Shown: piece by piece, positions 15,539 through 60,246 of the stretch | Layout: each line of letters starts with the position of its first letter | How positions within the stretch are numbered: position 1 is the first letter of the stretch | Assembly: GCA_017468385.1 (NCBI GenBank) | Contig: JAFUIQ010000011.1 | Location: 1,622-65,621, forward strand | DNA length: 64,000 bases | From: Clostridia bacterium | GTDB taxonomy: Bacteria > Bacillota > Clostridia > Oscillospirales > CAG-272 | Direction: 5' to 3' | The notes under the pieces: model-generated | Told to the model about the DNA's origin: nothing | What the model saw: the letters and a program-made list of their open reading frames with translations, nothing else | Database searches by the model: none | Program-made: the position numbers and the translations under genes

Positions 15539-15604
15539 TCCCAGATATGTGTCATGGCTGTCTGGAATGATCGGGGTTATGACGCAGACTGAAGAAACAA
15601 CTGA

Positions 15605-15640
15605 GAAGGTGCCGCATCCTACCATGCGGCACCTTCTTTT
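15605..15640 (+). terminator. Terminator of the SBP-like gene
   Basis: GAAGGTGCCGCAT-CCTACC-ATGCGGCACCTTC + TTTT. Confidence 0.75.
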
Positions 15641-15661
15641 CCTGTTTTTTACAAGGAAGAA

Positions 15662-15698
15662 AACAGTGGCTGTTGCATTTAATGCAACAGCCACTGTT
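15662..15698 (-). terminator. Long perfect palindrome, likely the terminator for the CotH operon
   Basis: AACAGTGGCTGTTGCATT-T-AATGCAACAGCCACTGTT. On the minus strand it is followed by GTTTTCTTCC. Confidence 0.6.
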
Positions 15699-18163: not shown

Positions 18164-18223
18164 AATAGCACACCGTTTGATGAATACAGCCGCTCGGGGG
18201 AGCGGCTGTATTATGTTATGGAG

Positions 18224-24899: not shown

Positions 24900-24919
24900 G
24901 ATTTCACCTCGTGCAGGAT

Positions 24920-26266
24920 TTACATCCGCAACCCTTTCGGATAGTGATTCTTCGCCCGGCCGCCGGAGACTTTTGCGCCGCCCACGGTGCATCCGTCCAC
25001 CGTGACCACGGCCCATCCATTTTTCGCGTCGGTTTCGATTTCCTCGCCGTGGAGATAGCGGGCCAGAGCCTCGCTGTCCGCCGTCAGTTCGATTTTTCGG
25101 CGGAAATCACGGCCCATGGCCATGAAGAACTGATGGTGGGGCTGGATGTAGTTCTTCCGGATCTCCCCGATGGTGACGCCGCAGGCGAAAGCCACGCCTT
25201 TCTCAATCGGCAGATCCGGGGTGAAGTACACGGGGGATCCGTTGTACATCCGCACGTGATCTTTTTCGTAGGTGATCAGTACGTCATCCAGAAACGCCGT
25301 GACAGCGGGATCGATCTTCTCCGTCTTGGCGGGCTTGATGATCCGGGGGGAGGCTTCGCCGGTGTGGTGGAGCACCGCCATGAACTGCCCCTCGCCCCGT
25401 CCCGTGTGGGGATAAAACCGTCTTGCGTAGTGGATATTCTCGCATCGGCATCCGTCGAAGGCGATGCCGTCTGCCGTGTGGGCGCGCACCGCTTCCTTCA
25501 CCGGCACAATCTCGAACTCCGGATGGGCGGTGAGGAACGCATCCACGGTCCTCTCGTTTTCCTCCAGGGAGAAGGTGCAGGTGGCATAAATGATGTATCC
25601 CCCATCCCGCAGAGCGCGGGCGGCGTTGTCCAGAATTTCCGTCTGCCGATCGGCGCACATGGCTACGTTTTCGGGCGTCCACTCGTCGATGGCGATCTCT
25701 TCCTTGCGGAACATGCCCTCACCGGAGCAGGGGGCATCCACCATGATCAGATCAAAAGTGTGGGGGAAGATCTTTGCCAGCCGTTTCGTATCCATGCAGG
25801 TGGTGACGGTGTTGCGCAGTCCCAGCCGCTCGATGTTGCCGGTCAGGATTTTGCAGCGGGATGGAATGATCTCGTTGGACACAAGAATCCCGCCCTCGCC
25901 CAGCTTGTTTTTCAGCTGGGTGCTTTTTCCACCCGGGGCGGCGCACATGTCCAGCACCCACCAGTCGCGATCCACATCGATGCACTCCGCCGGTGCCATG
26001 GCACCCGGCTCCTGCACATAGACCATGCCCGCGTGGTGGTAGGGATGGTTGCCGATCTTCCCATTCAAATAATATCCGCCGGGGACGTAGGGAATGGCCT
26101 CGCCCCCAAAAGCGCCCAGCTTCTCAAAGTCCGCGACGGATATCTTCGCCGTGTTCACCCGGTAGGCTTTTACAGGATCCTCCCGCAGGGCGGCTTCGTA
26201 GGCGGCAAAATCCTCGCCCAGCAGATCCATCATCCGTTCCCGGTAAGCCAAAGGCAGTTCTTTCAT
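24920..26266 (-). CDS. RsmB/RsmF-family rRNA cytosine-C5 methyltransferase (NOL1/NOP2/Sun)
   Basis: The blocks VLDMCAAPGGKSTQL, DAPCSGEGMFRK and YATCT are the SAM-binding and catalytic Cys motifs of this family. Start at MKELPL. Confidence 0.85.
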   Translation of the reverse strand: MKELPLAYRERMMDLLGEDFAAYEAALREDPVKAYRVNTAKISVADFEKLGAFGGEAIPYVPGGYYLNGKIGNHPYHHAGMVYVQEPGAMAPAECIDVDRDWWVLDMCAAPGGKSTQLKNKLGEGGILVSNEIIPSRCKILTGNIERLGLRNTVTTCMDTKRLAKIFPHTFDLIMVDAPCSGEGMFRKEEIAIDEWTPENVAMCADRQTEILDNAARALRDGGYIIYATCTFSLEENERTVDAFLTAHPEFEIVPVKEAVRAHTADGIAFDGCRCENIHYARRFYPHTGRGEGQFMAVLHHTGEASPRIIKPAKTEKIDPAVTAFLDDVLITYEKDHVRMYNGSPVYFTPDLPIEKGVAFACGVTIGEIRKNYIQPHHQFFMAMGRDFRRKIELTADSEALARYLHGEEIETDAKNGWAVVTVDGCTVGGAKVSGGRAKNHYPKGLRM

Positions 26267-27018
26267 GCGTCCTCCTCCGTCAGATGCATCTCCGTGTGGA
26301 GCATGCACATGCCCACCGCTGTGATGGCGGCGGTTTCCGTCCGCAGAATCCGCCGGCCCAGGGAGATGGCACGGCCGCCGGCACGGATGGCGTCCTCAAT
26401 CTCGGATTCGGAGAATCCGCCCTCCGGGCCGATGAGGATACCGACGGACATGCCCGGCCGGATCTCACTCAGCGCGGCGGCGGTGGGGGCCATGCCGTCT
26501 TTATTCTCGTAGGGGACAAGGAACAAGTCCATCTCCCCCGCCAGCGTCATGGCATCCTTGTAGGAGATGGCATCGTGTACTACGGGAATGGCGCTCCGCT
26601 TGCTCTGCTTGGCGGCGCTTTCCGCGATGGCCTGCCAGCGGGCGGTCTTGCTCTTCTTTTTGGAATCGTCCAGCTTGACGATGCAGCGGCTCATGGCCAC
26701 GGGATAGATCCCCTCCACGCCCAATTCCACCGTTTTCTGGATGATCCACTCCATTTTGTCCGCCTTGGGCAGGCCCTGGAACAGATAGATTTTCACGGGG
26801 AGAGATGTATCCCCATAGTTTTCCTCCAGAATTTCCGCCACCGCGGTGTCGGATTCGTATTCTGCCAGGCGGCACAGATACCGAATCCCCTCACAGCTGA
26901 CGATAAAGGAATCGCCCGCCCGCATCCGCAGAACGTTTTTTATGTGATTGAAATCCCCGTCCGTGATGCGGAACGTGTTCTCCGCCCGGCGGGATTCGTC
27001 AACGAAAAAATTATGCAT
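26263..27018 (-). CDS. rsmE: 16S rRNA (uracil1498-N3)-methyltransferase
   Basis: MHNFFVD...FRITDGDFNHIKNVLRMRAGD N-terminus and C-terminal LIGPEGGFSESE..ISLGRRILRTETAA (SPOUT knot). 4-nt overlap with the downstream gene. Confidence 0.9.
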   Translation of the reverse strand: MHNFFVDESRRAENTFRITDGDFNHIKNVLRMRAGDSFIVSCEGIRYLCRLAEYESDTAVAEILEENYGDTSLPVKIYLFQGLPKADKMEWIIQKTVELGVEGIYPVAMSRCIVKLDDSKKKSKTARWQAIAESAAKQSKRSAIPVVHDAISYKDAMTLAGEMDLFLVPYENKDGMAPTAAALSEIRPGMSVGILIGPEGGFSESEIEDAIRAGGRAISLGRRILRTETAAITAVGMCMLHTEMHLTEEDA

Positions 27019-29794: not shown

Positions 29795-31210
29795 TTACTC
29801 CGTTTCCCGATAAGCGTCCCAGGCGGGCTTCTTTTCGGCCAACTCGTCGGAATCCGGCTTCCGCCGCCACAGGCCCAGATTGAGTCCTCCCTCGTCCACG
29901 TTATCCGTGTGAGAATAGTAGATGAAGGCATCGATTTCGGGAATCTCCCCCGCTTTTCTGTATGCCCGCACCAGAGCCTCTTTTTGGATTGCCTCACCCG
30001 CTGCGGTAAAGTTGGAATGGAATCCCGCCTCGGAGAAGATCATCCGCCGGGATTTGCCTTCCAGGAGCAGGGGCGACTGGGCCAGGAAATCCCGCAGGAC
30101 CTCTGGATTCTTCATGGTGATAAAGGGGGTGTCGGGGGAATCGGTCACATTCTCCTCATTCCAGAAATCTGCCCGGGCGGGATCGGCGGAGTAGGGATGA
30201 TAGGCGATGTGGAAGGGAATCTCCCCCTCCCGGGTCGCGTAGGATACCACGGACGCGAGCAGATCCCGTCCGGGATAGAACCGGCGGGGCTCCTCCTCCA
30301 TGGGGCGTGCCCAGTGATGATCCAGCGACACATAGATGCGGATGTTTTTCCAGATCACGGAGGCGCACTGCCATGCGATCCGCAAGGCGGATGTGTACAT
30401 CTCCGCGAAGACGTGCATCTCGCACTCGCCCACGTTGGCCCAGATCCAGGGAGTGTTGACCTCGTTGCCCACGATCATGCCGGTGATGTTGCCGTACATC
30501 CCGTCCTCCCGGGTATACCGGTCGGCCAGGAAGGATACGAACGCCCGATAGTAGGCGCATCCCTCCTCCCGGAAAGTGTCAAAGAGGGAAGCGGCCCCCT
30601 CCTCCTCAAAACCGGGATGGCGGATCTTCTCCCAGAAATCCTCGCCCACCTGGGTCAGCCAGCTTTGGCAGTTGAGCAGGATCAGATTTACATTCACGCC
30701 CGCCTCAGACAGGGGCTTGATACAGCTGTCCGTATATTCTGCCGCCCGGCGGCGGATGTAATAATCCTTTCCCTCAAAGCGGTAATAGAGGGTGTTTCCT
30801 CCGTCGGGATATTCCATCATGAAATCTCCCAGATTCACGCTCAAAGCGGCATGACGGATGCCCAATGCCAGCGCATCCTCCGTCAGCGTGACCTGCAGTC
30901 CCTTTTTGGAGGTCTGCTCGGGGTAGGGATAATCATAGCGGGCGGGGAGGATCTCCTCCACGTATTTCTTGCCCGCCACCTCGCCGTTTTTGTCCGCGGT
31001 CACGTAACAGAAGGTGATGCCGTCCCGGCCGGCGATGCGGCGGGATACGGAAAAAGAATCCCCGGAAACACTCAGGGAGAGGGAACAGATCTCCACCTCT
31101 TCCCCCAGGGCGGGGGAGTACATGGACACCCGCAGTTTTTCCCCGGTGACGGGGGCATCCAATGTAAAACGGATTTCCTCCCCGGTGGCGGTAATGCGCG
31201 TGATTTTCAT
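29795..31210 (-). CDS. Putative glycoside-hydrolase-like TIM-barrel protein (DUF5722-like, tentative)
   Basis: Start at MKITRIT (ATG 31210, 9 nt after AAGGAG). The family assignment is from general resemblance only. Confidence 0.5.
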   Translation of the reverse strand: MKITRITATGEEIRFTLDAPVTGEKLRVSMYSPALGEEVEICSLSLSVSGDSFSVSRRIAGRDGITFCYVTADKNGEVAGKKYVEEILPARYDYPYPEQTSKKGLQVTLTEDALALGIRHAALSVNLGDFMMEYPDGGNTLYYRFEGKDYYIRRRAAEYTDSCIKPLSEAGVNVNLILLNCQSWLTQVGEDFWEKIRHPGFEEEGAASLFDTFREEGCAYYRAFVSFLADRYTREDGMYGNITGMIVGNEVNTPWIWANVGECEMHVFAEMYTSALRIAWQCASVIWKNIRIYVSLDHHWARPMEEEPRRFYPGRDLLASVVSYATREGEIPFHIAYHPYSADPARADFWNEENVTDSPDTPFITMKNPEVLRDFLAQSPLLLEGKSRRMIFSEAGFHSNFTAAGEAIQKEALVRAYRKAGEIPEIDAFIYYSHTDNVDEGGLNLGLWRRKPDSDELAEKKPAWDAYRETE

Positions 31211-31407
31211 AAATCCCATCTCCTTTTGGCCGTTGTTTTCTGTATTGTAATATAATTCGCCCCCGATGTCAAGTTGCGGCGAAATCTCCCGGGGGAAATC
31301 CGCTGTTTTGCCCCCCAAGTTTCGCGCAAAGAATTGACATTTGCGTCTGTATTATGTATAATTTACTCTGAAGTATTAGATGCTTTTTGCCATCATGGAG
31401 ATTTGTT

Positions 31408-32778
31408 ATGACATTTTCCAGCGCATCGTTCCTGTTTTTGTTTTTGCCCATCGTATTTTTATTGTATCTGATCTCCCCCTCGCTGCGGCTGAAAAACGGT
31501 TTGCTGGCCGCTGTCAGCGTATTTTTCTACGCCTTCGGCGAGCCTGTATATGTAATTCTTCTTCTGGTATCTGTCGTGCTGAACTATGTGTTTGCCCGTC
31601 TGGTGGACCGTACCCACAGCAAGTGGATCCTCGGTGTGTCCGTGGTTTTGAATCTACTTATGCTGGGCGTGTTCAAGTATGCGGCCCTCGCGGTGGATGC
31701 GGTGAATCTGATCCCCGGCATGTCGCTGACGGTGCCTGCCATCGCTTTGCCCATCGGTATCTCCTTCTATACATTCCAGATCCTTTCCTATGTGGTGGAC
31801 GTGTACCGGGGAGACGCCAGGGTGCAGACCAATGTGGTGGATCTTCTTCTGTATATTTCGTTTTTCCCGCAGCTGATTGCGGGCCCCATCGTCAAATATC
31901 ATGATATCGATCAGCAGATCGCGTGTCGGTCGATGACGGCGGAGGGCTGTGCCCGGGGTATCCGCCGCTTCGTTCTGGGATTGGCCAAGAAGCTGCTTCT
32001 GGCCAACGCCTGCGGACTGATCGCCGATACCGCCTTCGGCGCGGAGCATCCCGGCACGGCTCTGGCCTGGCTGGGTGCCGTGGCATACTGCCTGCAGATC
32101 TATCACGACTTTTCCGCCTATTCGGATATGGCCATCGGCCTCGGTGCCATGTTCGGCTTTGCAATTCCCGAAAACTTCCGTTATCCGTACATATCGGGCA
32201 GCGTGCAGGAGTTCTGGCGCCGGTGGCACATCTCCCTCTCCACCTGGTTTAAGGAATATCTGTACATTCCGCTGGGGGGCAACCGGAAAGGACGTGCCCG
32301 GAAACTGCTCAATAAGACCATCGTGTTCTTTTCCACCGGCCTGTGGCACGGTGCCAGTCTCAGTTTTATCCTGTGGGGATTGTGGCACGGCGCGTTCCTC
32401 ATTCTGGAGGATTTTGTCAAGCCCAAGAGCAAAAAATGGCTGTCCGTTCTGTGGTGGCCGGTTACCTTGTTTGCCGTTTTGTTCGGATTTGTTTTGTTCC
32501 GCGCGGAATCTCTGTCCGCCGCCGTGGCCTATCTGGGGGCTATGTTTAGTGCCGCACCCATCACATCCGCCTTTGCATCCTGCGTGGAGGGATACGATCT
32601 GGCCATGCTGGCCATCGCGGCCATCTTCTCCTTGCCGGTGATTCCCTGGCTGAGGGAGCGCATGGGAAACCGGACCTCCGAGATCGTGGGATATACCGCC
32701 AGCCTGCTTTTGTTTGCGGTGTGCGTGATCTCACTCTCTTCCACTACGTTTAATCCGTTTATCTATTTCCGCTTCTGA
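31408..32778 (+). CDS. MBOAT-family membrane O-acyltransferase (AlgI/DltB/PatA-like)
   Basis: Start at MTFSSASFLFLFLP. Polytopic. Conserved blocks FWRRWHISLSTWFKEYLYIPLGGNR and GLWHGASLSFILWGLWHGA include the catalytic His region. Confidence 0.9.
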   Translation: MTFSSASFLFLFLPIVFLLYLISPSLRLKNGLLAAVSVFFYAFGEPVYVILLLVSVVLNYVFARLVDRTHSKWILGVSVVLNLLMLGVFKYAALAVDAVNLIPGMSLTVPAIALPIGISFYTFQILSYVVDVYRGDARVQTNVVDLLLYISFFPQLIAGPIVKYHDIDQQIACRSMTAEGCARGIRRFVLGLAKKLLLANACGLIADTAFGAEHPGTALAWLGAVAYCLQIYHDFSAYSDMAIGLGAMFGFAIPENFRYPYISGSVQEFWRRWHISLSTWFKEYLYIPLGGNRKGRARKLLNKTIVFFSTGLWHGASLSFILWGLWHGAFLILEDFVKPKSKKWLSVLWWPVTLFAVLFGFVLFRAESLSAAVAYLGAMFSAAPITSAFASCVEGYDLAMLAIAAIFSLPVIPWLRERMGNRTSEIVGYTASLLLFAVCVISLSSTTFNPFIYFRF

Positions 32779-32786
32779 GGGACGAA

Positions 32787-33869
32787 ATGAAAAAACTGTT
32801 TCCGATTTTATATTGCAGCGTGTTTATCGCGCTGTGCCTGGTCCTTGGCCTGGGCGCATTCCTTATCCCGGTGGATGCAGATGCGGAGGGGCGGGATCTG
32901 GCGCCCTTTCCGCCCTTTGTGACGGAGGGGAAGTTCAACACCGATTTCTTCAACGAATTTGACGCCTGGCTCACGGATCATTTCACCGCCCGCCAGTTCT
33001 TCATCAATCAGAACAGCGCGGTGATGGAAAACGTCTTCCATACGGGAAGCGATCAGGTGATCGTGGGCGAGGACGGATTTCTGTTCTATAACGCCACCAC
33101 CGCCGACTACTGCGGGGAGAGTATCCTGACCGGGGAGGAGATCGACGCCATTGCCGATTCGCTGGCGCAGATGTCCGAAAAGGCCGCCGGCTACGGCGCG
33201 AAGCTGATCGTGGCGGTGGCTCCCAACAAGAACACCGTCTACGGGGAGTACATGCCAGCCGCCTATCGGGCGGTCCGCGAAAACGCTGCCCATGTGTCCA
33301 ATATGGATCTTCTGTACGAGGCACTGGCGGAGCGGGGGATTCTATATGCGGATCTGCGGCCCTGTCTGACGGATGCCGATCCGCTGAATTATCACAAGCG
33401 GGATACCCACTGGAACGGCGCCGGGGCTCTGGCGGCGTACAACACCATTCTGGATGCGCTGGAGATCCCCCATGAGAATTACGCATCCTATCCCCTTGTT
33501 CATACCGCGGATTTCCCCGGCGATCTGGACGGAATGCTTTATCCGGGAGCGGGAAAAACGGACGACAATTATATGCCGGATTACGATTTTTCCTCCGCCT
33601 TTGTGTATACATCCGCCGGGAATTCTCCCATGGATATGACGATCACCACCCGCGGAGGCGGGCAGGGCAGCCTGCTTGTGTTCCGCGACTCCTTCGGATC
33701 TGCCATGATCCCCTATTTTTCCGCATCGTTCCGGGATGTGCGCTACGAGCGCGCCATGCCCTACCGCGTCGATCTGCTGGCACGATATCCGGCGGATGCG
33801 GTGATTATTGAAATTGCCGAGCGGAATATTCCGCTTCTGATACCCGATGCCGCCTCCATCGACGGCTGA
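32787..33869 (+). CDS. AlgX/AlgJ-like (SGNH-like, DHHW-related) extracytoplasmic acyltransferase partner
   Basis: N-terminal TM helix. The HKRDTHWNGAGA motif matches the D-x-H-W block of AlgJ/AlgX-type proteins. 8-nt gap after the MBOAT gene. Confidence 0.7.
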   Translation: MKKLFPILYCSVFIALCLVLGLGAFLIPVDADAEGRDLAPFPPFVTEGKFNTDFFNEFDAWLTDHFTARQFFINQNSAVMENVFHTGSDQVIVGEDGFLFYNATTADYCGESILTGEEIDAIADSLAQMSEKAAGYGAKLIVAVAPNKNTVYGEYMPAAYRAVRENAAHVSNMDLLYEALAERGILYADLRPCLTDADPLNYHKRDTHWNGAGALAAYNTILDALEIPHENYASYPLVHTADFPGDLDGMLYPGAGKTDDNYMPDYDFSSAFVYTSAGNSPMDMTITTRGGGQGSLLVFRDSFGSAMIPYFSASFRDVRYERAMPYRVDLLARYPADAVIIEIAERNIPLLIPDAASIDG

Positions 33870-33879
33870 TAAGGAGGTT

Positions 33880-34977
33880 ATGATCTTGCCGAAATACATC
33901 CGGCGTGCCGCCGCTGTCCTTGCGCTGGGCGCATTGCTTCTGCCTTTGAGCGGATGCGCTACCCGCGCCAACGGCGGATACTACTACGAAAATCACAGTT
34001 TCCGGAATTTTGACATCCGTTCCCTGCAGGGGAACGCAGAGGATGCCGCACTGACGGATACGGACAATATTTCCCTCATTTCCTCGGATAAATCGTCCGC
34101 GGGCACCACCGTTAAAACAGCGGAGGAAGTGTTTCATCGGGCCACCGTGTCCGATGCGATGCTGAACGTCTATGTGAGCCCCACCCGCTCCAGCCGCGTG
34201 GCCATGAATCTGGGTGTGGGCGAGGAAATCGAGCTGGCGTATTATAACGACGCCTTTCTGCAGGTGAAGAAGCAGGGCGTTCTGCTCGGATACTGTGAGC
34301 CGGGCAATACCTACAGCGGCATCTGGGACAACTACTTCGGCTTTCTGCCCGAGGAAGCCGGCATGGCCAAGAATAAGAACAGCGAGCTGGTGCCCGCCAC
34401 CTCCAAACTGGTGGATGTGCGCCTGTACACCGATAAGCTGGAAATCAAAATGAAGCTGGCCACCAACGGCACCTCTATCGGTGAGCCCTTCTATCACCGC
34501 AACCTCTGCATGCTGCAGGAGGATACCCTGGTGAAGCTGATGGACGCCATCAAACTGTTTGAGGCGGACGGATACAAGATTGTTATTTACGATGCGTACC
34601 GCCCCACCAGCGTACAGCAGAGATGGTTTGACGTGGTCCGCGTCCATAAATGGGTGGCGGATCCCTCCATCGGCATGGGCGGCATCCATGACCGCGGCGT
34701 GGCGGTGGATATGACGCTTATGGATAAAAACGGGGTGGAATTGGATATGCCTACGGCCATGCATACCTTTACGGATGCAGCCAGCCGCTGGTCCAAGATG
34801 ACGTCCACCCAAAGAAAAAACGTGGACTACATGACGGACATCATGACCCGGTGCGGATTCACCTACATCAATTCCGAGTGGTGGCATTTCCAGGACAGCC
34901 TGATTGAAAATTACCTGCCCACCGATCATCCCATCGATGAGATCCCGCTGGTATACATGGAAAGGAGCGGTTCATGA
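33880..34977 (+). CDS. Lipoprotein with SH3b-like N-domain and VanX-type (M15D) D-Ala-D-Ala dipeptidase domain
   Basis: AAGGAGG RBS and lipobox LSGC. YDAYRPTSVQ, HDRGVAVDMTL (HxxGxAxD) and EWWHFQD are the VanX/DdpX zinc-site motifs. Confidence 0.8.
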   Translation: MILPKYIRRAAAVLALGALLLPLSGCATRANGGYYYENHSFRNFDIRSLQGNAEDAALTDTDNISLISSDKSSAGTTVKTAEEVFHRATVSDAMLNVYVSPTRSSRVAMNLGVGEEIELAYYNDAFLQVKKQGVLLGYCEPGNTYSGIWDNYFGFLPEEAGMAKNKNSELVPATSKLVDVRLYTDKLEIKMKLATNGTSIGEPFYHRNLCMLQEDTLVKLMDAIKLFEADGYKIVIYDAYRPTSVQQRWFDVVRVHKWVADPSIGMGGIHDRGVAVDMTLMDKNGVELDMPTAMHTFTDAASRWSKMTSTQRKNVDYMTDIMTRCGFTYINSEWWHFQDSLIENYLPTDHPIDEIPLVYMERSGS

Positions 34978-37217
34978 AAACAACGGCACAAAAGAACCGG
35001 CATCCCGGACGTGTGTTCCTGGCGAAAAGCAAAAACCGCCCCTATCTGGCGGCCTGTCCCGTACATATTGTCAACGCGGAGTTCTTTCTGGATCTGAAGC
35101 TGCAGAAGAAAGTGATGAAACTGCGGATGCAGAACCGGGGCGACGCGGCGGTGGCGGGAATGGTGATCTACGCCCGCTATCTGGATCGGGACGGAAACGT
35201 GATCGGCGCGGACAACGGATACATTGTTCTGAATTTTTCCAACATCTACTGCGCGCCCAACGAAACCACTCTCGGCTCCAAAACCGTAGTCCTGCCGTAT
35301 CAGGATATCTGCGGCATTGAGGCCTATGTCGGATCCCTTACCTTTGCCTCCGGCAAAACGGCGGAGTTCCATGTGGAGGATTACTCCCTCATGCCCGCCC
35401 AGGATATGCTGGAGAATCACATGAGCGAGAAGGAATTTGCCCTCCTGCGCCGCCGTTTCGGCAAACGGTGCGTGTTTGTTCCCCATATGGGAAAAGACAC
35501 CATGTGGCTGTGCTCCTGCGGTGCGGTCTGCCAGGACGGCATCTGTGCCGCCTGCGGCATGAAGAAAAAGCACGCCGCCTATCTGGCCTCGCGGAAAACC
35601 ACTCCCACGCTTCTGCGGCTTCTGCAGATCCGCTACGGGGCACTGCGTGCCCTGCCGTATGTGGCTGCGCTGATTCTGCTTGTGTCCGGCTTTGCGGTGC
35701 TGCGGCAGTATGCGGATCGGTATACCAATGTGACTTTGCCCGCCCAGCGGCTCAAAGTTACCCGCCAGTTTATGGAGGAGCACCGCTATAACGAAGCGCT
35801 GGGCTACAGCGTGAACAAGAATCAGGGCCTGCTGTATGAGGAGATTCTGGACGCGGCGGTTGCCCATTACTGCGAGATCGGTGACTTCGACAGTGCCGCC
35901 GATTACGAAAAGTGCCGGGAATATCCGGAGTACGAGGCCATCTATCGGGCGGCTGCCCGGCGGTATCTGCAGGAATCCGATGAGGGCTGCACCGAATACG
36001 CCCTCAGCACCCAGGATGCGGATCTGCGCAATCAGGTCCTGCGGAAAATGGCGGAAGACAAGCGGACGAAGGGGGAGCGGGATGCGGCCTGCGCGCTGGC
36101 TCTCATGATGAGCGGTGCGGAGGGGCAGAGTTATGCGGATACGGTCCTGTATGAAACCATTGCCGCCTACCTGGAGGAGTCCGATCACGAAAGAGCGGTG
36201 GCCTACATCGCCTATCTGACGGATAAGAGCCGGGTAGCCGAGGTTTGTCAGGGTATTGAGGCGGAGCTGCTGGACAAGGGACAGTACGAAAACGCCTTTG
36301 CGGTGGCCAGCATCACGGGAGATACCGGCGTGTTTGAGGCGGCTTATCCCCATGCCACCTCCGTCATGGTGCGTCGCTACTACGATAAATTCTTCCCCTT
36401 TATGAGTGCGGCGGATAAGATGACTTTCCTGGCCGCGGCTATAGCGGCGGAGGACGATGTGGCTGCTATCACATCGGGCGGCAAAGCCATCCACTCCTCC
36501 TTAGGTGAGTTGTGCGATAACGCCCTTTCCGTGGCTTGCGGAGACAAGTATGTGCTGGTTCTGCAGAACGACGGTACGGTGCGCTTCTTCGGTGAGGATA
36601 CTCATGGCCAGGGCAAGTGCGACGGCATCAGCAGCGTGATCGACATCGCCGCGGGGGAGGGACATTCCCTGCTTCTGCTGGCGGACGGCACGGTGCGTGC
36701 CTACGGCGATAATTCCGTTGGCCAGTGCGATGTGAGCGAGTGGCGCAACGTGGTCGATATAGCGGCCGGCGATCGCCATTCCGTGGGACTTACCTCCGAC
36801 GGAAAGGTGCTGGTCTGCGGATCGAATCAGTCCGGCCAGTGCGCCGTGACCGAATATACCGATGTGGTGGCCGTGGCCGCCGGGGATTATACGACCGTGC
36901 TTTTGTTCCGTGACAGCACGATGGCGGTGGAGGGCAATCTGTCCCTGGACGCTCTCGCTTGCCGCTCGTGGAATGATATCGTCCGTGTCAGCGTGTCCAA
37001 CGGACACCTGGTCGCATTGAACAGCGTGGGCCGCGTCATGTACGCCGGTGCCTCTGCCACAAAATCCGCATCGGCGGTGGACGGATGGGTCCGCGTGCGC
37101 CATATCGCGTGCGGTGACCGTGCCTCCTATGGTATCGATGCGCACGGTAAGATTTTGAGCTGCGGGGAAGATATCCCGAATCTGAACGGCAGCGGATGGG
37201 AGTCTCTGAAGCGATGA
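34974..37217 (+). CDS. Zn-ribbon / single-TM / helical-repeat / RCC1-repeat beta-propeller protein
   Basis: 4-nt overlap with the previous gene. CSCG..CAACG ribbon and a TM helix (YVAALILLVSGFAVL). C-terminal repeats DIAAGxxHS..L..DGTV...G.N..GQC are typical RCC1 blades. Confidence 0.75.
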   Translation: MKTTAQKNRHPGRVFLAKSKNRPYLAACPVHIVNAEFFLDLKLQKKVMKLRMQNRGDAAVAGMVIYARYLDRDGNVIGADNGYIVLNFSNIYCAPNETTLGSKTVVLPYQDICGIEAYVGSLTFASGKTAEFHVEDYSLMPAQDMLENHMSEKEFALLRRRFGKRCVFVPHMGKDTMWLCSCGAVCQDGICAACGMKKKHAAYLASRKTTPTLLRLLQIRYGALRALPYVAALILLVSGFAVLRQYADRYTNVTLPAQRLKVTRQFMEEHRYNEALGYSVNKNQGLLYEEILDAAVAHYCEIGDFDSAADYEKCREYPEYEAIYRAAARRYLQESDEGCTEYALSTQDADLRNQVLRKMAEDKRTKGERDAACALALMMSGAEGQSYADTVLYETIAAYLEESDHERAVAYIAYLTDKSRVAEVCQGIEAELLDKGQYENAFAVASITGDTGVFEAAYPHATSVMVRRYYDKFFPFMSAADKMTFLAAAIAAEDDVAAITSGGKAIHSSLGELCDNALSVACGDKYVLVLQNDGTVRFFGEDTHGQGKCDGISSVIDIAAGEGHSLLLLADGTVRAYGDNSVGQCDVSEWRNVVDIAAGDRHSVGLTSDGKVLVCGSNQSGQCAVTEYTDVVAVAAGDYTTVLLFRDSTMAVEGNLSLDALACRSWNDIVRVSVSNGHLVALNSVGRVMYAGASATKSASAVDGWVRVRHIACGDRASYGIDAHGKILSCGEDIPNLNGSGWESLKR

Positions 37218-38884
37218 CAGCCAGTACCGATACACAAACCAAACCCACCCCGAAGCGGATCGCTGTGCGGGTAATATGCATCGCCGCCGCGAGTTTGCTG
37301 TTGCTGTTTCTCGCGGTGAGCGGGATAATACTTTCGTGGGGATTGGTGCCTCTCACCGTGGAAGCGGGCGAGAACACCCCGCAGGCCGCGGAATTCGTGC
37401 GGTTCCCCCTGGCCCCGCTTTCCTGTGAAAGCGATCTGACGGACGGTGCCTATGCCCAAATCGGTGAGCACACCGTGCACTTCTCCCTGTGGGGCATTTC
37501 CATGCAGACGACGCTGACGGTGCAGGATACGGTGCCACCCCGCTTTACGGTGAAGCATCACGGTATCCAGCCCGGCGATCCGGTATCGGCGGCGGATTTT
37601 ATCGCCGAAGCGCAGGACTTCTCGGCGTACACGGCGGAGGTGCTCCTGCCGGAGAATATCGACAGGGCCGGTGAATACCCGGTGCAGATCCGTCTGACGG
37701 ACGCATGGGGAAATTGCGGGGAGCAGAGCGCTTCGCTGTTCGTGTTCTCCTTGCCGGATGTTTTGCTGATGGAGGCCGGATCCGATGCGGATACCCGTCT
37801 GGATGTTTTGCAGAACGCGGTCCCCGGTGCTGTTTTTGCGGAGGAGATTTCCGTGGAGAAGCGGGGACAGAAGTCCGTGGCCATACAGATCAACGGCTTT
37901 ACCTTCCCCCTGACTCTTGACATCCATGATACCCGGCCGCCGATGGCCCGCACCCTGTCGCTGACGGTACCCGGCGGATCGGATGAGATACCGGAGCCGG
38001 CGGACTTTGTGACAGAGGTTTCCGATGCTTCGGCGGTGACGGTTGCGTATGCCAAAACACCGGATTTCGAGACCCCCGGCAAGCGGGGCGTCACGCTGAT
38101 TCTGACCGACGAAGTGGGAAATGTGACCAAGCTTCGTGCCTCGTTTACCGTGACGGCGCCGGAGGAAGAACCGCTTCCGCCTCCCGTGGAGGTGAAGCTG
38201 CCGGTCATTCAGGGCGTGAAGAATCTTTTCATGAACGTGGGCACATGGATTTCCTACAAAAGCGGCGTCAGCGCCGCGGACAGTGAGGGAAATCCTCTCA
38301 CCGTGGAAGTGAATTCCTCCGCGGTTAAGAGGAACGAGCCCGGCGCATACACGATTACCTATACTGCCACCGATAAAAACGGAAATACCGCCTCGGCGCA
38401 GGCCACGGTTACCGTGTACGAGATCACGGAAGATATCCTGCGGCCTTATGTGAATAAGGTGCTGAACAAGATCCTGACGGAGAACATGACCCAGCTGGAA
38501 AAAGCCCGGGCCATCTACGACTGGATGAAGGCCCATGTGTCCTATACGGCCTATGCCTATAAGGATCATTGGATGCGCGCCGCCTATTCCGGATTTTTGA
38601 ACGGACGGGGCGACTGCTATGTGTATTACGCCATGGCCCGCAGCCTTTTGGATGCGGCGGGGATCGAAAATATGGAAATCTGCCGTGACAATCCCGCCAA
38701 ACCCCACTACTGGAATCTGGTGAACTGCGGGGACGGATGGTATCATTTCGATACCTGCCCCCACTATAGACAATATCCCCTGGAATCCTTTATGCTGACC
38801 GATGCGGAAGTGAAGGCCTATTCCGAAAACTGCGTGAAAGATTACTACAGTTTCGATGCCTCGCTGTATCCCGCTACCCCATAA
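37214..38884 (+). CDS. Membrane-anchored protein with Ig-like repeats and a C-terminal transglutaminase-like cysteine-protease core
   Basis: ATGA overlap with the RCC1 gene and an N-terminal TM helix. The blocks GRGDCYVYYAMARSLLDAAGIE ... HYWNLV ... WYHFDT give a Cys-His-Asp arrangement of the transglutaminase-like fold. Confidence 0.75.
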   Translation: MTASTDTQTKPTPKRIAVRVICIAAASLLLLFLAVSGIILSWGLVPLTVEAGENTPQAAEFVRFPLAPLSCESDLTDGAYAQIGEHTVHFSLWGISMQTTLTVQDTVPPRFTVKHHGIQPGDPVSAADFIAEAQDFSAYTAEVLLPENIDRAGEYPVQIRLTDAWGNCGEQSASLFVFSLPDVLLMEAGSDADTRLDVLQNAVPGAVFAEEISVEKRGQKSVAIQINGFTFPLTLDIHDTRPPMARTLSLTVPGGSDEIPEPADFVTEVSDASAVTVAYAKTPDFETPGKRGVTLILTDEVGNVTKLRASFTVTAPEEEPLPPPVEVKLPVIQGVKNLFMNVGTWISYKSGVSAADSEGNPLTVEVNSSAVKRNEPGAYTITYTATDKNGNTASAQATVTVYEITEDILRPYVNKVLNKILTENMTQLEKARAIYDWMKAHVSYTAYAYKDHWMRAAYSGFLNGRGDCYVYYAMARSLLDAAGIENMEICRDNPAKPHYWNLVNCGDGWYHFDTCPHYRQYPLESFMLTDAEVKAYSENCVKDYYSFDASLYPATP

Positions 38885-38906
38885 TCTGATTTTGGAGAAA
38901 TGTGTT

Positions 38907-39452
38907 ATGAAAAAACTTGCCGTTTTGCTGATCCTGAGCATGCTGATTTTCGGTGCCTGCACCCCCGCGGAAGTGCCGGTTACCCCCGACGATACGGATC
39001 CTGTTGTGTCCGATACCGCCGGTGATTCCGAAACGACTCCGCCCGCCCCCACTGCGGAGGACGGATTTGCCCTGACGTATAAGGATGCGCGCCTGATCCC
39101 CGGGGTACATATGGACGTGGAAGCCGTGCTCGGCGCCCCCGTCGATAAAACGGAAGCGCCCAGCTGCCTGCACGACGGCAATGATACCGTGTATTTCTAT
39201 GAGGATCTGGAGATCGTTACCTCTCCCTCCGCCCAGGGCGAGTACATCGTGTCCGTCACGGTGATCTCTCCGGCTGTGGCAACGGAGGAGGGAATCACCC
39301 TCGGTGCCAGCATCAGCGATGCCATTGCCGCCTGCGGCGAGGCAGAGGAGGCGTTTGGCCGCTATCTGTTCACCCGGGGCAATACCACCCTCACCATGAT
39401 GACCGATGACGACGGCGTCATCCTCTCCATCTCCTACGCCTTGGCGGAGTGA
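38907..39452 (+). CDS. Hypothetical small lipoprotein
   Basis: MKKLAVLLILSMLIFGAC lipobox, then a D/T/P-rich linker. Last gene of the operon. Confidence 0.6.
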   Translation: MKKLAVLLILSMLIFGACTPAEVPVTPDDTDPVVSDTAGDSETTPPAPTAEDGFALTYKDARLIPGVHMDVEAVLGAPVDKTEAPSCLHDGNDTVYFYEDLEIVTSPSAQGEYIVSVTVISPAVATEEGITLGASISDAIAACGEAEEAFGRYLFTRGNTTLTMMTDDDGVILSISYALAE

Positions 39453-39467
39453 AATATGCAATACAAT

Positions 39468-39500
39468 CGGCAGAGAGGTAGTCTCCCTGCCGGTTTTGTG
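39468..39500 (+). terminator. Terminator of the six-gene envelope operon
   Basis: CGGCAGAGAGG-TAG-TCTCCCTGCCG imperfect stem followed by GTTTTGTGTT. Confidence 0.6.
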
Positions 39501-39505
39501 TTATA

Positions 39506-40051
39506 ATGAATAGGGTGATGACAACGGATAATGAATTGCCGAAAAGAAAAAGCATTCGGTTAAAGAATTTTGATTATAGCACTGCCGGAGCATATTTTGT
39601 CACGATATGCTCAGAAAACAGGGAGAATTATTTTTGGAATGCCGGAATTGATCTGCAAATGTTCAAGTGGGAATCTGTAGGGGCGAACTGTGTTCGCCCG
39701 CAAAATCTTCCCCTATCCAATGTTGGAAAGATCGTTGCCGAAGAATTGGAACGGTGGGACAAAACATACGCTCCGGTTTTGTTACAGTCCTATGTGATCA
39801 TGCCGAATCATTTGCATATGATCGTTGTGATATCGGCGGATGAAAACGGGCGACCACAGGTCGCCCCTACATTGGATAGAATGGTTAAACAATTCAAAGG
39901 GGCTGTTACCAAGAAGGTCGGGAAACCAATTTGGCAAAAATCCTTTATAGAACATATCATTCGTGACAGAGAGGATTATGAAGCGAGACAAAAATATATC
40001 CGCGACAATCCGATTCGGTGGTATTATGAGAGATTGAATGCAGGAGAATAG
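39506..40051 (+). CDS. REP-associated tyrosine transposase-like / IS200-like Y1 transposase family protein (solitary)
   Basis: YVIMPNHLHMIVVI (HUH motif) and WQKSFIEHIIRDREDYEARQKYIRDNPIRW (catalytic Tyr region). No flanking terminal hairpins or REP clusters recognised. Confidence 0.75.
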   Translation: MNRVMTTDNELPKRKSIRLKNFDYSTAGAYFVTICSENRENYFWNAGIDLQMFKWESVGANCVRPQNLPLSNVGKIVAEELERWDKTYAPVLLQSYVIMPNHLHMIVVISADENGRPQVAPTLDRMVKQFKGAVTKKVGKPIWQKSFIEHIIRDREDYEARQKYIRDNPIRWYYERLNAGE

Positions 40052-40136
40052 TGGGTGACTATTAGGATAGGTTGGTAATACAAAGGCGACGCTGGTGATA
40101 GACAGAAGGATACATAATGATTTGACGGAGTACAAG

Positions 40137-40565
40137 ATGCATAGAATTTTTGGAGTAAAAGAAAATGCTGAATACTTAGACCGTGAGGGTATATACTTCA
40201 TTCCTTGCCGCAATACTCAAGTCGGTGTAGTTCAAACTTCCAAAGGTTACTTTTTCTTAGGCGGCGGTTTAGAGAGTGGAGAAAGTCACTTGGATTGTAT
40301 TAAGAGAGAGTGCATTGAAGAAGTAGGATATTCCCCCCGTGTTGAGGGCAGATTATGTTCTGCCGAAGCATATATCAAACATCCGACGATAGGATACTTT
40401 CATCCAATTCAAACATACTACTTCGGAACATTGCTTGATTGTAAATCTACCCCCACAGAAAAAGACCATGTTCTGTGCTGGATAGAATATGACCAACTAA
40501 AGGGAAAGATGTTTGTTGAAATGCAGAATTGGGCATTAGAGCAACTATCTGCATATTCGAAGTAA
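40137..40565 (+). CDS. NUDIX hydrolase
   Basis: Nudix box GGGLESGESHLDCIKRECIEEVGY (GX5EX7REUXEEXGU). ATG 40137 follows GGAG (the track start at 40095 is a GTG). Confidence 0.8.
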   Translation: MHRIFGVKENAEYLDREGIYFIPCRNTQVGVVQTSKGYFFLGGGLESGESHLDCIKRECIEEVGYSPRVEGRLCSAEAYIKHPTIGYFHPIQTYYFGTLLDCKSTPTEKDHVLCWIEYDQLKGKMFVEMQNWALEQLSAYSK

Positions 40566-40659
40566 ATCAACCAATTCCAGTTTATTAAGCGGATAAAAGA
40601 AATCCCCGACAGACGCTGAAAGTCTGCCGGGGTTTTAAAATTGTTAGATCAGCCCTTCC

Positions 40660-40854
40660 TCAATTTTCCTTCTCCGGAATGACCGCCTTGGCGGGATCAA
40701 TCTTCCCGTGGCACCGCTCAAAATAGGCGATGTTGGTGCGGATCAGGTGGAGCATCTGATTGTTCAGCGACCGGCCTTCCTCCGCCGATGCCACCAGCAA
40801 TTTCTTGTACAGCTCCTCGTCAATGCGTACCTCAAAGGTTACTTTGTTCTTCAT
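40660..40854 (-). CDS. Arc/CopG-type ribbon-helix-helix DNA-binding protein (64 aa)
   Basis: The pattern KVTFEVRIDEELYKKLLVASAEEGRSLNNQMLHLIR is a typical RHH beta-strand plus two helices. No toxin partner is adjacent. Confidence 0.65.
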   Translation of the reverse strand: MKNKVTFEVRIDEELYKKLLVASAEEGRSLNNQMLHLIRTNIAYFERCHGKIDPAKAVIPEKEN

Positions 40855-40965
40855 ATCGTTCTCCTGCCGGATGATGTTTTTTCTTTATTATACCGATTCC
40901 CTGTTGTCATTTGTTGAATATTGTGTTAAAATTTTCTTATATGAGATGCGTCATCAGGAGGATTT

Positions 40966-44717: not shown

Positions 44718-46870
44718 ATGGAAATTTTGGAGATACTTTGCAGTGAATTGAATATCCGCCGCACCCAGGCGGAAGCGGCGGTGAAACTGCTGGATGACGG
44801 CAACACCGTGCCCTTTATTGCCCGTTACCGTAAGGAGGCCACGGGCGGTCTGGATGACGATCAGCTTCGCGCCCTGACCGATCGGCTGGCCTATCTGCGG
44901 AATCTGCAGAAGCGGCGGGAGGAGGTTCTGTCCCTCATCGGGGAGCAGGGTAAGCTGACGGAGGAAATTGAGGCGGCGGTGGCGGCCGCATCCACTTTGA
45001 CGGAGATTGACGATATCTACCGTCCCTTCCGCCCCAAGCGGAAGACGAGAGCGTCCGTGGCAAGAGAGCGGGGACTGGAGCCGCTGGCGGCACTGCTGAT
45101 GGCCCAGGAGGCATCCTACACGCCGGCTCTTGAGGAAGCGGCGGAGCAGTATATTGATGAAGATAAGGCGTGCCCGACGGAAAATCCGCTCTGGCCGGCG
45201 CCTGCGATATCATCGCCGAGGATATCTCCGACGACGCGGACTACCGCCGGGAGATCCGCGCTTTGACCATGGAGTACGGCTTGCTTTCTTCCAAAAAGGA
45301 TGGGGAGAGCAATCCCACCTACGAGATGTATTTCGACTACTGTGAGAAGCTGTCTGGCATCCCGTCCCATCGGGTGCTGGCGGTAAATCGGGGCGAGGCG
45401 GAGGAGTGTCTCAAGGTATCGGTGTCCGTAGACAGCGATATCATTCTCAATTATATGTTCGCCCAGGTGATCACCCGCTACGGCAGCCCCGCCTTCAAAT
45501 ACGTGGCATCCGCCGTGTGCGATGCGTATGACCGGCTGATCGCTCCGTCCATTGAGCGGGAGATCCGGGCGGCGCTGACGGAAACGGCCAGCGAAAATGC
45601 CATCAAGCTGTTTTCCGACAATCTGAAGCATCTTCTCATGCAGGCACCCCTGAAGGGCAAGACCGTTCTCGGATACGACCCCGGCTACCGCACGGGATGC
45701 AAGCTGGCCGTGGTGGACAAAACCGGCATGGTCATCGATACCGCCGTGATTTATCCCACCAAGCCCCATGAGAAGATCGCCCAGAGCAAAAAGATCGTTA
45801 CCGATCTGGTGAGAAAATACGGGGTGGATGTGGTGGCCATCGGCAACGGCACCGCCTCCGGTGAGAGCGAGATGTTCATTGCCGAAACCCTCTCTGAGAT
45901 CGGCGGTCATACCAAGTATATTGTAGTCAGCGAAGCGGGGGCGTCTGTCTATTCCGCCTCCAAGGTGGGCGCGGAGGAGTTCCCCGATTTCGATGTAACC
46001 CAGCGCTCCGCTGTGTCCATCGCCCGCCGTTTGCAGGATCCCCTGGCGGAGTTGGTAAAGATCGATCCCAAATCCATCGGCGTGGGCCAGTACCAGCACG
46101 ACATGCGGGAGGCTCGCCTGGATGAGGCACTCTCCGGCGTGGTGGAGGACTGCGTAAACGCCGTGGGCGTGGATCTGAATACGGCGTCCTATATGCTGCT
46201 TTCCTATATCGCCGGCATCAACGCCACCAGTGCGAAGAATATCGTCAAATACCGGGACGAGAACGGCGAGTTCACCTCCCGTGCCCAGGTATTGAAGGTG
46301 CCCCGCATCGGTGCGAAGGCCTACGAGCAGTGCGCCGGATTCTTGCGCGTGCCCGGATCGGGGGAGATTCTGGACAACACCGGTGTCCATCCCGAATCCT
46401 ACGCCGCCGCACGGAACGTGCTGAAGGTGTTCGGATTCACCGAAGAGGATGTGCGCCTTGGCCGTCTGGCCGGCCTGAAAAAGAAGGCGGAGGGGTACGG
46501 CATGGCCAGACTGGCCGGCGAGGTGGGATGCGGCGAGGCGACTCTTGCCGATATTCTCGGTGAATTGGAAAAGCCCGGCCGGGACGTCCGCGACTCCTTG
46601 CCCCAGCCCCAGCTGCGGGAAAAGGTGATGACCATGGAGGAATTGACGCCCGGCATGGTTCTCACCGGTACGGTCCGCAACGTCATCGATTTCGGCGCGT
46701 TCGTGGATATCGGCGTCCATCAGGACGGACTGGTTCACGTGTCCGAGATCGCCGATCGGTTCATCAAGCACCCAAGCGAGGCACTGTCCGTGGGCGATGT
46801 GGTGCAGGTGCGCATCAAAGGGGTGGATTTGAAGAAAAAGCGCATCGCGCTGTCTATGAAAGGAATCTGA
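44718..46870 (+). pseudogene. tex: tex (S1-domain transcription accessory protein) interrupted by a 1-nt frameshift at about 45167-45168
   Basis: Frame A (44718-45266) carries the Tex N-terminus (LDDGNTVPFIARYRKEATGGLDD). Frame B (45170-46870) carries the YqgF, HhH and S1 parts. The frames join if GATAAGGCGTG is read as GATAAGGGCGTG, giving ...DEDKGVPDGKSALAGACDIIAE... Confidence 0.85.
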
Positions 46871-47093
46871 TTCTAATAAAATTAGAGTTTCCGCCGCTCT
46901 CCGGATTTTCACCCGGAGAATAAAAAGTGAATCGTTTGTGCGAAGTGCACAAACTCATAAAACAAAATTTGGAGAAAAAAACTCTTTCCATTTGCGCGGA
47001 TTTTTGGTACAATATATATCAGTTAAAACTGTGCGAAGATGCCCTTTTGTCTTCATGCGGTAAAAATGTGATATTATCTAGGAGGATATATAC

Positions 47094-58956: not shown

Positions 58957-58968
58957 GGGAGGTAGCAT

Positions 58969-60204: not shown

Positions 60205-60246
60205 GGCGTTTTCATACGCTGAGACGAAAACAGGTGAAACTATAGT

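Follow-up and report, generated by a model that had tools for sequence, protein, structure and literature searches.

A conserved six-gene envelope cassette of gut Clostridia that unites a predicted MBOAT/AlgX-type acylation relay with two predicted wall peptidases

Results

Genes and transcription signals of the locus

The window, i.e., the whole stretch of 64,000 nucleotides (nt) of contig JAFUIQ010000011.1 that was analyzed, stems from an uncultured gut Clostridia bacterium and contains six plus strand genes at positions 31408-39452, here called g1 to g6. All six products are membrane-bound or extracytoplasmic, as judged from hydropathy and lipoboxes, and the six genes recur as a unit in many other loci. 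The genes and the transcription signals at both ends are as follows (aa, amino acids; TM, transmembrane):

31334-31362, plus strand: promoter-like element TTGACA-17 nt-TATAAT, identical to the sigma-70 consensus at 12 of 12 positions, 45 nt upstream of the g1 start codon, identified by consensus match alone
31408-32778, plus strand: g1, multipass MBOAT protein of the PatA/PatA1/AlgI type, 456 aa (Pfam MBOAT)
32787-33869, plus strand: g2, membrane-anchored AlgX/DHHW-type SGNH-like transferase, 360 aa (Pfam ALGX and DHHW)
33880-34977, plus strand: g3, lipoprotein and predicted DdpX/VanX-type M15D zinc peptidase, 365 aa, lipobox LSGC with Cys26 (Pfam PF01427)
34974-37217, plus strand: g4, bitopic protein, 747 aa (Pfam RCC1_2 PF13540, 108.9 bits, and AlphaFold2 (AF2) model)
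37214-38884, plus strand: g5, type-II membrane protein with Ig-like stalk and transglutaminase-like domain, 556 aa (Pfam)
38907-39452, plus strand: g6, lipoprotein, 181 aa, lipobox FGAC with Cys18
39468-39502, plus strand: intrinsic-terminator-like hairpin (39468-39492) followed by GTTTTGTGTT, identified by folding and shuffling

Consecutive genes are separated by 8 nt and 10 nt, overlap by 4 nt within an ATGA at g3/g4 and again at g4/g5, and are separated by 22 nt at the last junction. These five lengths exactly reproduce those of a first-pass annotation, which had been made from the letters of the window alone. The start codons chosen there agree with the N-termini of the orthologues, and a GGAG-like motif is located 6-13 nt 5' of every start codon from g1 to g6. 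The terminator that had been placed downstream of g6 is also present: the hairpin together with its GUUUUGUGUU T-tract has a folding energy of -20.3 kcal/mol (z = -4.26), and 0 of 200 shuffled sequences were equally stable. A consensus scan of the plus strand of the operon yielded neither a strong internal promoter nor a strong internal terminator, which is suggestive and no substitute for transcriptome data. With the transcript structure read from these signals, g1 to g6 are best regarded as one operon.

The envelope location that the first-pass annotation had assigned to every product agrees with the hydropathy and lipobox analysis. Its domain calls for g1 to g5 were borne out by the Pfam and NCBIfam scans with two refinements, which concern the SH3b domain of g3 and the zinc ribbon of g4 (see below). 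The same scans revealed no catalytic-family signature in g4 or g6.

The six genes are conserved as a unit

The complete set in the same order was found in 18 distinct loci besides the window (L001, L005, L008, L010, L011, L012, L014, L016, L017, L018, L019, L021, L024, L026, L028, L030, L031, and L034), and all shorter contigs are compatible with this order. These loci were reached independently by starting from g4, g3, and g6. They span a large divergence, as the lowest identities to the proteins of the window are 50% for g1, 42% for g2, 45% for g3, 26% for g4, 37% for g5, and 35% for g6. At the other end, L008 is 89-100% identical to the window over the six proteins and two shared flanking genes, so that the window probably stems from the species of L008 or from a near relative. 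The first-pass annotation had suspected one system of six components; in the relatives, the genes are neither scattered nor only pairwise linked, and they are kept together in all 18 further loci within unrelated flanks. Because the arrangement is conserved as a unit, it is far beyond chance.

A word-based search with g4 retrieved about 30 protein clusters with identities of 46-93%, and every contig derived from it that was inspected had the order MBOAT, ALGX, M15, RCC1, Ig/transglutaminase, small protein. Seven GTDB species representatives with the cassette were among the results; they are metagenome-assembled genomes of faecal or rumen origin, which are labelled Eubacteriales, Oscillospiraceae, or Clostridiales. 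This search understates the distribution, because g4 diverges fast and the searches with g3 and g6 spread wider. The g3 search led to at least 222 clusters at 90% identity, and three distant members (45-51% identity) that were looked up all reside in the six-gene arrangement, with wholly different flanks. The g6 search also led to at least 222 clusters at 90% identity, and both distant members that were looked up close the cassette.

Furthermore, a metagenome scan anchored on g3 yielded 80 loci, which were then analyzed by tblastn with all six families. In the loci with a full-length g3 orthologue (L020-L038, L040, and L041), every partner gene that the contig is long enough to include is present and in its usual place, and eight of these loci are complete. 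No full-length g3 orthologue was found outside of the cassette among the 80 loci. Distant M15D homologues, with identities of at most 38%, lack any partner gene in 56 of 58 loci. Two other explanations of the linkage were rejected. One is that any M15D gene attracts such neighbours, which disagrees with these 56 loci and with two inspected outgroups, the surroundings of which differ. The other is mere lineage-wide synteny: no flanking gene family is common to more than 5 of the 19 loci, the flanks differ, and the distant cassettes L015-L019 and L026-L034 are embedded in unrelated contexts.

The predicted acyl relay of g1 and g2

The g1 protein matches the Pfam MBOAT family PF03062 with 103.7 bits (cut-off 27) and has about ten hydrophobic segments. 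Its catalytic-histidine motif WRRWH (nt 32215-32229) is kept in all orthologues in the form W(R/K)RWH(I/V)SL. The C-terminus reads NPFIYFRF (FIYFRF, nt 32758-32775), and a terminal FxYxxF is likewise present in all orthologues, with FIYYIF in the distant ones. FxYxxF is the acyl-shuttle motif fused to acetyl-CoA-using MBOATs of the PatA type, and the route from acetyl-CoA via Tyr and Ser to the polymer is established for PatAB and has been proposed for all MBOAT-SGNH pairs, whereas DltB has no fused shuttle motif and depends on DltX and DltC (PMC12148441). The best NCBIfam match of g1 is the DltB model TIGR04091, albeit with 165.7 bits versus an equivalog cut-off of 375, and the open reading frame (ORF) list and Pfam revealed no genes for DltA, DltC, or DltX in the cassette or the flanks in the window. 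Because of the fused FxYxxF and of a DltB score far below the cut-off, g1 appears to behave as an acetyl-CoA enzyme of the PatA/PatA1/AlgI type rather than as DltB. The "D-alanyl-type esterification" that the first-pass annotation had offered as an option is therefore disfavoured, all the more as dltA, dltC, and dltX are missing.

The second protein, g2, has an N-terminal membrane anchor and matches the Pfam families ALGX (64.1 bits) and DHHW (29.4 bits). The motifs DTHW, with Asp and His (nt 33402-33413), and RDSFG, with Ser (nt 33684-33698), are invariant in the orthologues. The closest solved relative, a remote one with an E-value of 2e-4, is PatB1 of Bacillus cereus (5v8d), the DxHW and DS motifs of which align with those of g2; 4nzk and AlgJ rank next. 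The g1/g2 pair thus has the sequence hallmarks of MBOAT-SGNH O-acetyltransferases such as PatA1/B1, AlgI/J/X, WssH/I, and CcsH/I, namely the His motif, the fused FxYxxF, and an adjacent AlgX/DHHW partner with Asp, His, and Ser. By analogy, acetyl transfer to a polymer is the predicted function. In the Pfam analysis of the window and of the flanking families, neither the cassette nor any of the conserved flanks turned out to encode a polymer synthase or a glycosyltransferase. An exopolysaccharide acetylation locus of the alg, wss, or ccs type was rejected as a candidate, since a synthase gene is not present in or near any cassette.

The two predicted peptidases, g3 and g5

The peptidase domain of g3 (nt 34399-34896) contains the motifs YDAYRP, HDRGVAVD, and EWWH, matches the Pfam family Peptidase_M15 PF01427 with 76.5 bits, and is the best-conserved segment of the entire cassette. 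It aligns over the full length with the DdpX model NF007557, with 132.2 bits versus an equivalog cut-off of 176, and scores 47.7 bits with the VanX model NF033115, for which the cut-off is 320. By these scores, g3 is a member of the M15D family and not an equivalog of VanX or DdpX. R241, H270, D277, E333, and H336 of g3 align with R71, H116, D123, E181, and H184 of VanX (1r44), and these five residues of the catalytic site are invariant in 26 orthologues. Of the SH3b-VanX architecture proposed in the first-pass annotation, the VanX-type zinc site stands. The SH3b part is probable: it stays below the threshold in the protein of the window, and SH3_3 was detected in 11 of the 26 orthologues, with a best E-value of 1e-4. 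The lipoprotein would hydrolyse D-Ala-D-Ala outside of the membrane, and its substrate could be the free dipeptide or, in stems that are not cross-linked, the terminus.

The g5 protein has a TM segment at aa 21-39, followed by a Bact_surface_Ig-like region (40.1 bits) and a Transglut_core domain, PF01841 (35.3 bits, cut-off 23). The C-terminal triad consists of Cys468, His498, and Asp513, and the catalytic domain is encoded by nt 38465-38752. The triad motifs G(D/N)C, H(Y/F)WNLV, and WYH(F/L)D are kept in the orthologues, and the triad is also present in the proteins of locus L098, which is described below. The orthologues have lengths of 546-843 aa because the length of the stalk varies, and they share a conserved C-terminal tail, YYSFD..YPxTP. 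In the PDB, the catalytic domain has weak sequence similarity to the uncharacterised structural-genomics proteins 4xz7, 9crn, and 3isr. Degenerate catalytic residues had been named in the first-pass annotation as a weak spot of its proposal; in the VanX-like as well as in the transglutaminase-like domain they are intact in all orthologues aligned. g5 is predicted to cleave or transamidate wall peptides.

The two putative binding proteins, g4 and g6

The bitopic protein g4 starts with a cytoplasmic beta-sandwich (aa 13-131) and a Cys cluster (aa 166-194), which are followed by the TM segment (aa 224-242). The extracytoplasmic part consists of an all-alpha domain (aa 272-486) and a compact RCC1_2 beta-propeller (aa 490-740, nt 36441-37193). 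The AF2 model, in which the Cys-rich region takes the shape of a hairpin and the TM segment is a single long helix, has a predicted local distance difference test score (pLDDT) of 85.8, with values above 90 in the propeller. The best Foldseek matches of the propeller are BLIP-II chains (3qi0/3qhy/1jtd_B; E-value 1e-17, TM-score 0.73, 27% identity), which rank above UVR8 and RCC1. The Foldseek output for g4 was dominated by the propeller, and neither the beta-sandwich nor the alpha-helical domain received an assignment. The first-pass annotation had described g4 as a fusion of zinc ribbon, TM segment, and RCC1 propeller. The latter two hold, while the zinc ribbon is not family-wide: C166, C180, C182, C191, and C194 are invariant in the close relatives and L015 only and are absent from L016-L019. 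A PilZ-like reading of the N-terminus was dropped, because just one Arg of the would-be RxxxR is conserved. From the model, g4 might be a scaffold or a protein-binding regulator or sensor.

The last protein, g6, has no sequence-family match in Pfam, NCBIfam, or the PDB. In its AF2 model (pLDDT 84.7 for the whole protein), a disordered linker precedes a globular 125-aa alpha/beta domain, which comprises two helix-plus-four-strand units and reaches pLDDT values above 90. Foldseek gave weak matches to YjgB/DUF4309, YfeY, and a "putative beta-lactamase inhibitor protein", with E-values of 1e-3 to 1e-1 and TM-scores of 0.4-0.5. The gene is always the terminal one of the cassette. An exhaustive profile search yielded 1608 clusters (50% identity) at E-values of at most 1e-10, and g6 can thus be assigned, by sequence profile, to a large unannotated lipoprotein superfamily that has no Pfam model. 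The motif EAPSCxHxGxD (residues 83-93, nt 39153-39185) is invariant in the cassette-type lipoproteins, and most of the top non-cassette members of the superfamily lack the Cys/His motif, which could equally well be catalytic or metal-binding.

Other architectures of the enzyme genes

Two further loci contain the enzyme families in a different arrangement. Locus L098:2247-11691, from rabbit gut, has the order M15D (904 aa), Transglut_core with choline-binding repeats, MBOAT, ALGX/DHHW, SH3-M15D (665 aa), and Transglut_core, i.e., all four enzyme families are re-arranged, and both the RCC1 protein and g6 are missing. In L039:397-6250, two tandem SH3-M15D genes are convergent with genes for MBOAT, ALGX, and a weakly g6-like ORF of 148 aa on the opposite strand, and the contig covers just a part of the locus; no RCC1 protein gene is located on the portion of the contig that is present. 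In our view, this re-association argues more strongly than any other observation for a functional link between the enzymes that goes beyond synteny, because the combination of MBOAT/ALGX and M15D (L098 and L039), in one case also with the transglutaminase-like protein (L098), recurs in other architectures.

In addition, one outgroup of the M15D search, L087:7127-10603, represents common human-gut contigs. Its SH3-M15D gene (342 aa) is located two genes downstream of an S66 LD-carboxypeptidase gene, with a 407-aa ORF without family match in between. This context suggests that wall-peptide processing is a general theme of SH3-M15D proteins.

Neighbouring genes

Upstream of the operon, a divergent gene with its own promoter-like element is found in the window:

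29795-31210, minus strand: DUF5722 gene (Pfam DUF5722, 324.8 bits), with its own TTGACA-17-TACAAT at 31272-31244

The encoded protein has no signal peptide, and the gene is present upstream of g1 in L005, L008, L010, L011, and L012 only and is missing from the distant cassettes. In the interval from the terminator of the operon to the ComM/YifB gene (39506-40965), the window contains a transposase-like ORF, a NUDIX gene, and a small minus strand ORF. The transposase-like ORF is of the REP-associated tyrosine type, with 62 bits and thus below the cut-off of 80, and L012 shares this gene. In the near-identical locus L008 the interval comprises about 357 nt, so that the window looks like the carrier of an insertion polymorphism of about 1.2 kb.

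In other loci, the neighbourhood has features of its own. An Opp-type oligopeptide ABC transporter is encoded convergently just downstream of the cassette in L016:16432-21134, L019:12610-20627, L028, and L034, i.e., in one sub-lineage only, an arrangement that recalls the link between ddpX and ddpABCDF in Escherichia coli. In L018:1-1517 (Ruminococcaceae), the gene for a very large SLH-domain protein (MBG_2 and SLH) ends directly upstream of the cassette. Farther away in the window, two tandem paralogues of 788 aa with CotH kinase and lamin-tail domains are encoded on the minus strand (15797-20590), one of which has Fn3-associated/CHB_HEX_C motifs. A minus strand ORF of 1147 aa (58732-62175) has no Pfam or NCBIfam match, and other long ORFs without matches are located at 14045-15694, 24911-26512, and 45116-46912.

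Discussion

A known acylation relay within an undescribed module

The full-text literature searched did not contain a published description of this six-gene combination, in line with the first-pass annotation, which knew of no described system of this composition. The named members are annotated only as "hypothetical protein" or "M15 family metallopeptidase". New is, therefore, the occurrence of a known acylation relay within a conserved, undescribed module of six components.

The relay itself has several relatives. Like PatA1/PatB1 of B. cereus and B. anthracis and the predicted clostridial CcsH/CcsI, g1 and g2 represent a Firmicute MBOAT with a membrane-anchored DHHW/AlgX-type SGNH-like transferase. 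In contrast to PatA1/PatB1, the pair here belongs to a constant group of six genes, together with those for two predicted peptidases, a propeller protein, and a lipoprotein, and in contrast to ccsZABHI (PMC7710045), the cassette is devoid of polymer synthase and polysaccharide genes. The Gram-negative PatA/PatB/Ape1 system (PMC12148441) resembles the cassette in that the genes for an acetyl-CoA MBOAT that carries a Tyr shuttle motif and for an extracytoplasmic transferase are clustered with the gene for another wall-active enzyme. However, g2 is of the AlgX/DHHW type, its PDB matches at E-values of at most 1 are PatB1, 4nzk, and AlgJ and do not include a PatB chain, and the cassette has no gene for an Ape1-type esterase, its extra enzymes being predicted peptidases. 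With DltABCDX the cassette shares the combination of an MBOAT with an SGNH-like relay via an acyl-Tyr intermediate, but the shuttle motif is fused to g1 and not located on DltX, and DltA and DltC are missing.

The additional proteins also combine known domains in an unusual setting. Like DdpX, VanX, and PcgL (MEROPS M15D), g3 keeps the Arg, the His-x6-Asp, and the Glu-x-x-His. VanX and DdpX are cytoplasmic single-domain enzymes, whereas g3 has a lipid anchor and a probable extra SH3b-like domain, and its operon partner is a predicted O-acetyltransferase instead of van genes or a dipeptide transporter. A precedent for an extracytoplasmic M15D enzyme is PcgL of Salmonella, which is said to be periplasmic in work by Hilbert et al. 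from 1999. The PcgL enzyme is mentioned in PMC7933661. Residues 490-740 of g4 are similar to BLIP-II of Streptomyces exfoliatus in forming a compact RCC1-type propeller of about 250 residues, a similarity that concerns the fold only. BLIP-II is a secreted single-domain protein, whereas g4 is membrane-anchored and has an additional alpha-helical domain and a cytoplasmic beta-sandwich. g5 has the Cys-His-Asp core of the transglutaminase-like cysteine peptidases (PF01841) and differs from these by its membrane anchor, the Ig-like stalk, and the YYSFD..YPxTP tail. That a transglutaminase-like fold is able to cut cross-links of a cell wall is exemplified by the pseudomurein endoisopeptidases PeiW and PeiP.

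A proposed role in peptidoglycan editing

We propose, with a probability of roughly 0.55, that the operon encodes a system for the O-acetylation of wall glycans that is coupled to the processing of peptide stems and has two non-catalytic partners. The starting point is what was observed, i.e., the six genes and their joint conservation, the extracytoplasmic location, the intact catalytic residues of the four enzymes, and the shuttle motif of g1. As suggested by the motifs and the analogy to PatAB, g1 would take the acetyl group from cytoplasmic acetyl-CoA and load it onto Tyr453 of its own FIYFRF at the outer face of the membrane. Ser302 of g2, part of an Asp-His-Ser triad, would accept the acetyl group from Tyr453 and transfer it to a hydroxyl group of a wall glycan, most probably of peptidoglycan, else of a wall-bound secondary polysaccharide. 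g3 would hydrolyse the D-Ala-D-Ala bond at the outer face of the membrane, and g5, held off the membrane by its variable Ig-like stalk, would act on wall peptides at a greater distance from the membrane, by cleavage or transamidation. g4 and g6 would position or restrain the enzymes, as a scaffold and/or as protein-binding regulators. Peptidoglycan is favoured as the polymer because the partners are predicted to act on peptide stems, an argument of guilt by association as it has been used for ccsHI (PMC7710045). Hints at wall targeting come from the SH3b domains in g3 orthologues, the choline-binding repeats on the transglutaminase-like protein of L098, and the S66 neighbour of the outgroup SH3-M15D gene.

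Several points weigh against this proposal. PatB1, the nearest solved relative of g2, acetylates a secondary cell-wall polysaccharide and not peptidoglycan (PMC7710045), and the O-acetylation of peptidoglycan in Gram-positive bacteria is usually performed by OatA (PMC12148441). In L015:5301-6842, the MBOAT slot is occupied by a soluble protein of 513 aa that lacks MBOAT motifs and is not matched by any Pfam or NCBIfam family; the cassette is otherwise complete, and its AlgX-like gene keeps the catalytic motifs. All carriers that were found are metagenome-assembled genomes, of gut and rumen Clostridia, and a cultured representative was not among the matches. DdpX and VanX are dipeptidases with closed active sites, and an action of g3 on polymer-bound stems is speculative for this reason. 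Lastly, the roles of g4 and g6 are deduced solely from fold resemblance, which is weak for g6 (E-values of at least 1e-3, TM-scores of 0.4-0.5).

Alternative explanations

The first of these points leads directly to an alternative that is considerably less probable: g1 and g2 might acetylate a polymer other than peptidoglycan, i.e., an SLH-anchoring secondary cell-wall polysaccharide or a teichoic-acid-like polymer, and the peptidases might be co-regulated housekeeping enzymes without direct coupling. PatB1 as the best solved relative of g2 points in this direction, as do the giant SLH-domain protein directly upstream of the cassette in L018, the choline-binding, i.e., teichoic-acid-binding, repeats on the transglutaminase-like protein of L098, and the polysaccharide targets of known Firmicute MBOAT/DHHW pairs (PMC7710045). 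However, the six genes remain together over a large divergence, co-regulation alone hardly explains why MBOAT, ALGX, M15D, and transglutaminase-like genes re-associate in L098, and no conserved glycosyltransferase or pyruvyltransferase gene adjoins the cassette. It is rather unlikely, in our view, that the operon is primarily a module for hydrolase control, in which g4 and g6 act as dedicated protein inhibitors or activators of the potentially lytic enzymes g3 and g5, and O-acetylation marks or protects the glycan and thereby confines cleavage in space or time. The similarity of the g4 propeller to BLIP-II (E-value 1e-17, TM-score 0.73) would fit, and so would the inclusion of YfeY, DUF4309, and a "putative beta-lactamase inhibitor protein" among the weak fold matches of g6, the lack of a catalytic family signature in both proteins, and the ATGA overlaps at g3/g4 and g4/g5. 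Yet a similar fold does not imply inhibition, and the targets of BLIP-II are serine beta-lactamases and not metallo- or cysteine peptidases. Moreover, the enzymes are also linked in L098 and L039, where g4 is missing (a possible g6-like gene is present in L039), and the invariant Cys/His motif of g6 could just as well be catalytic or metal-binding.

Two further explanations start from the substrate of g3. The enzymes g5 and g3 could degrade wall peptides for uptake, comparable to DdpX with the Ddp transporter of E. coli, and thus serve the scavenging of muropeptides and D-Ala-D-Ala. The catalytic domain of g3 is indeed DdpX-like along its entire length, an Opp-type ABC transporter is convergent downstream in L016, L019, L028, and L034, and the outgroup SH3-M15D gene is close to an LD-carboxypeptidase gene. 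But the transporter is limited to one sub-lineage, the universally linked MBOAT/AlgX-like pair, g4, and g6 would be left unexplained, and the enzymes are membrane-tethered and wall-targeted instead of secreted, all of which makes scavenging very improbable. Hardly credible is a Dlt-like D-alanyl esterification by g1 and g2 with g3 as the supplier of D-Ala from D-Ala-D-Ala. Free D-Ala outside of the cell could not be activated, as this requires ATP, and neither the cassette nor its flanks contain genes for the DltA ligase, the DltC carrier, or the DltX microprotein. The DltB model is the top NCBIfam match of g1, and an enzyme of the D-Ala-D-Ala dipeptidase type is hard-wired to g1 and g2, but the DltB score of 165.7 contrasts with a cut-off of 375, and g1 has a fused FxYxxF, which is absent from DltB, as the latter uses DltX (PMC12148441).

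The coupling of glycan O-acetylation and stem processing can also be extended to a more ambitious version, which is rather improbable. The six proteins might form a single membrane-anchored complex for wall editing, in which g4 and g6, as dedicated protein-binding subunits, tether or gate g3 and g5, possibly docking on penicillin-binding proteins. The O-acetylation of nascent glycan and stem editing would then occur concurrently, and the beta-sandwich of g4 would be a control point from inside to outside. The BLIP-II fold would, in this case, have a native function at the cell wall.

Implications

MBOAT-SGNH pairs are the general bacterial route for the acylation of envelope polymers, and their substrates have mostly been guessed from the gene neighbours. 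In the cassette, the neighbours of the pair are two predicted wall-peptide enzymes and two binding-type proteins and not polymer synthases. With its six co-evolving proteins, the cassette is also a well-defined starting material for complex prediction and for biochemistry. If the proposed coupling is true, one machine would combine the O-acetylation of glycans, which is the basis of the resistance against lysozyme and autolysins, with the trimming of D-Ala-D-Ala stems, which influences cross-linking and the binding of glycopeptides. It would furthermore reveal an extracellular role for an enzyme of the DdpX/VanX type in Gram-positive bacteria, and it would point to a physiological role of propellers similar to BLIP-II at the cell wall.

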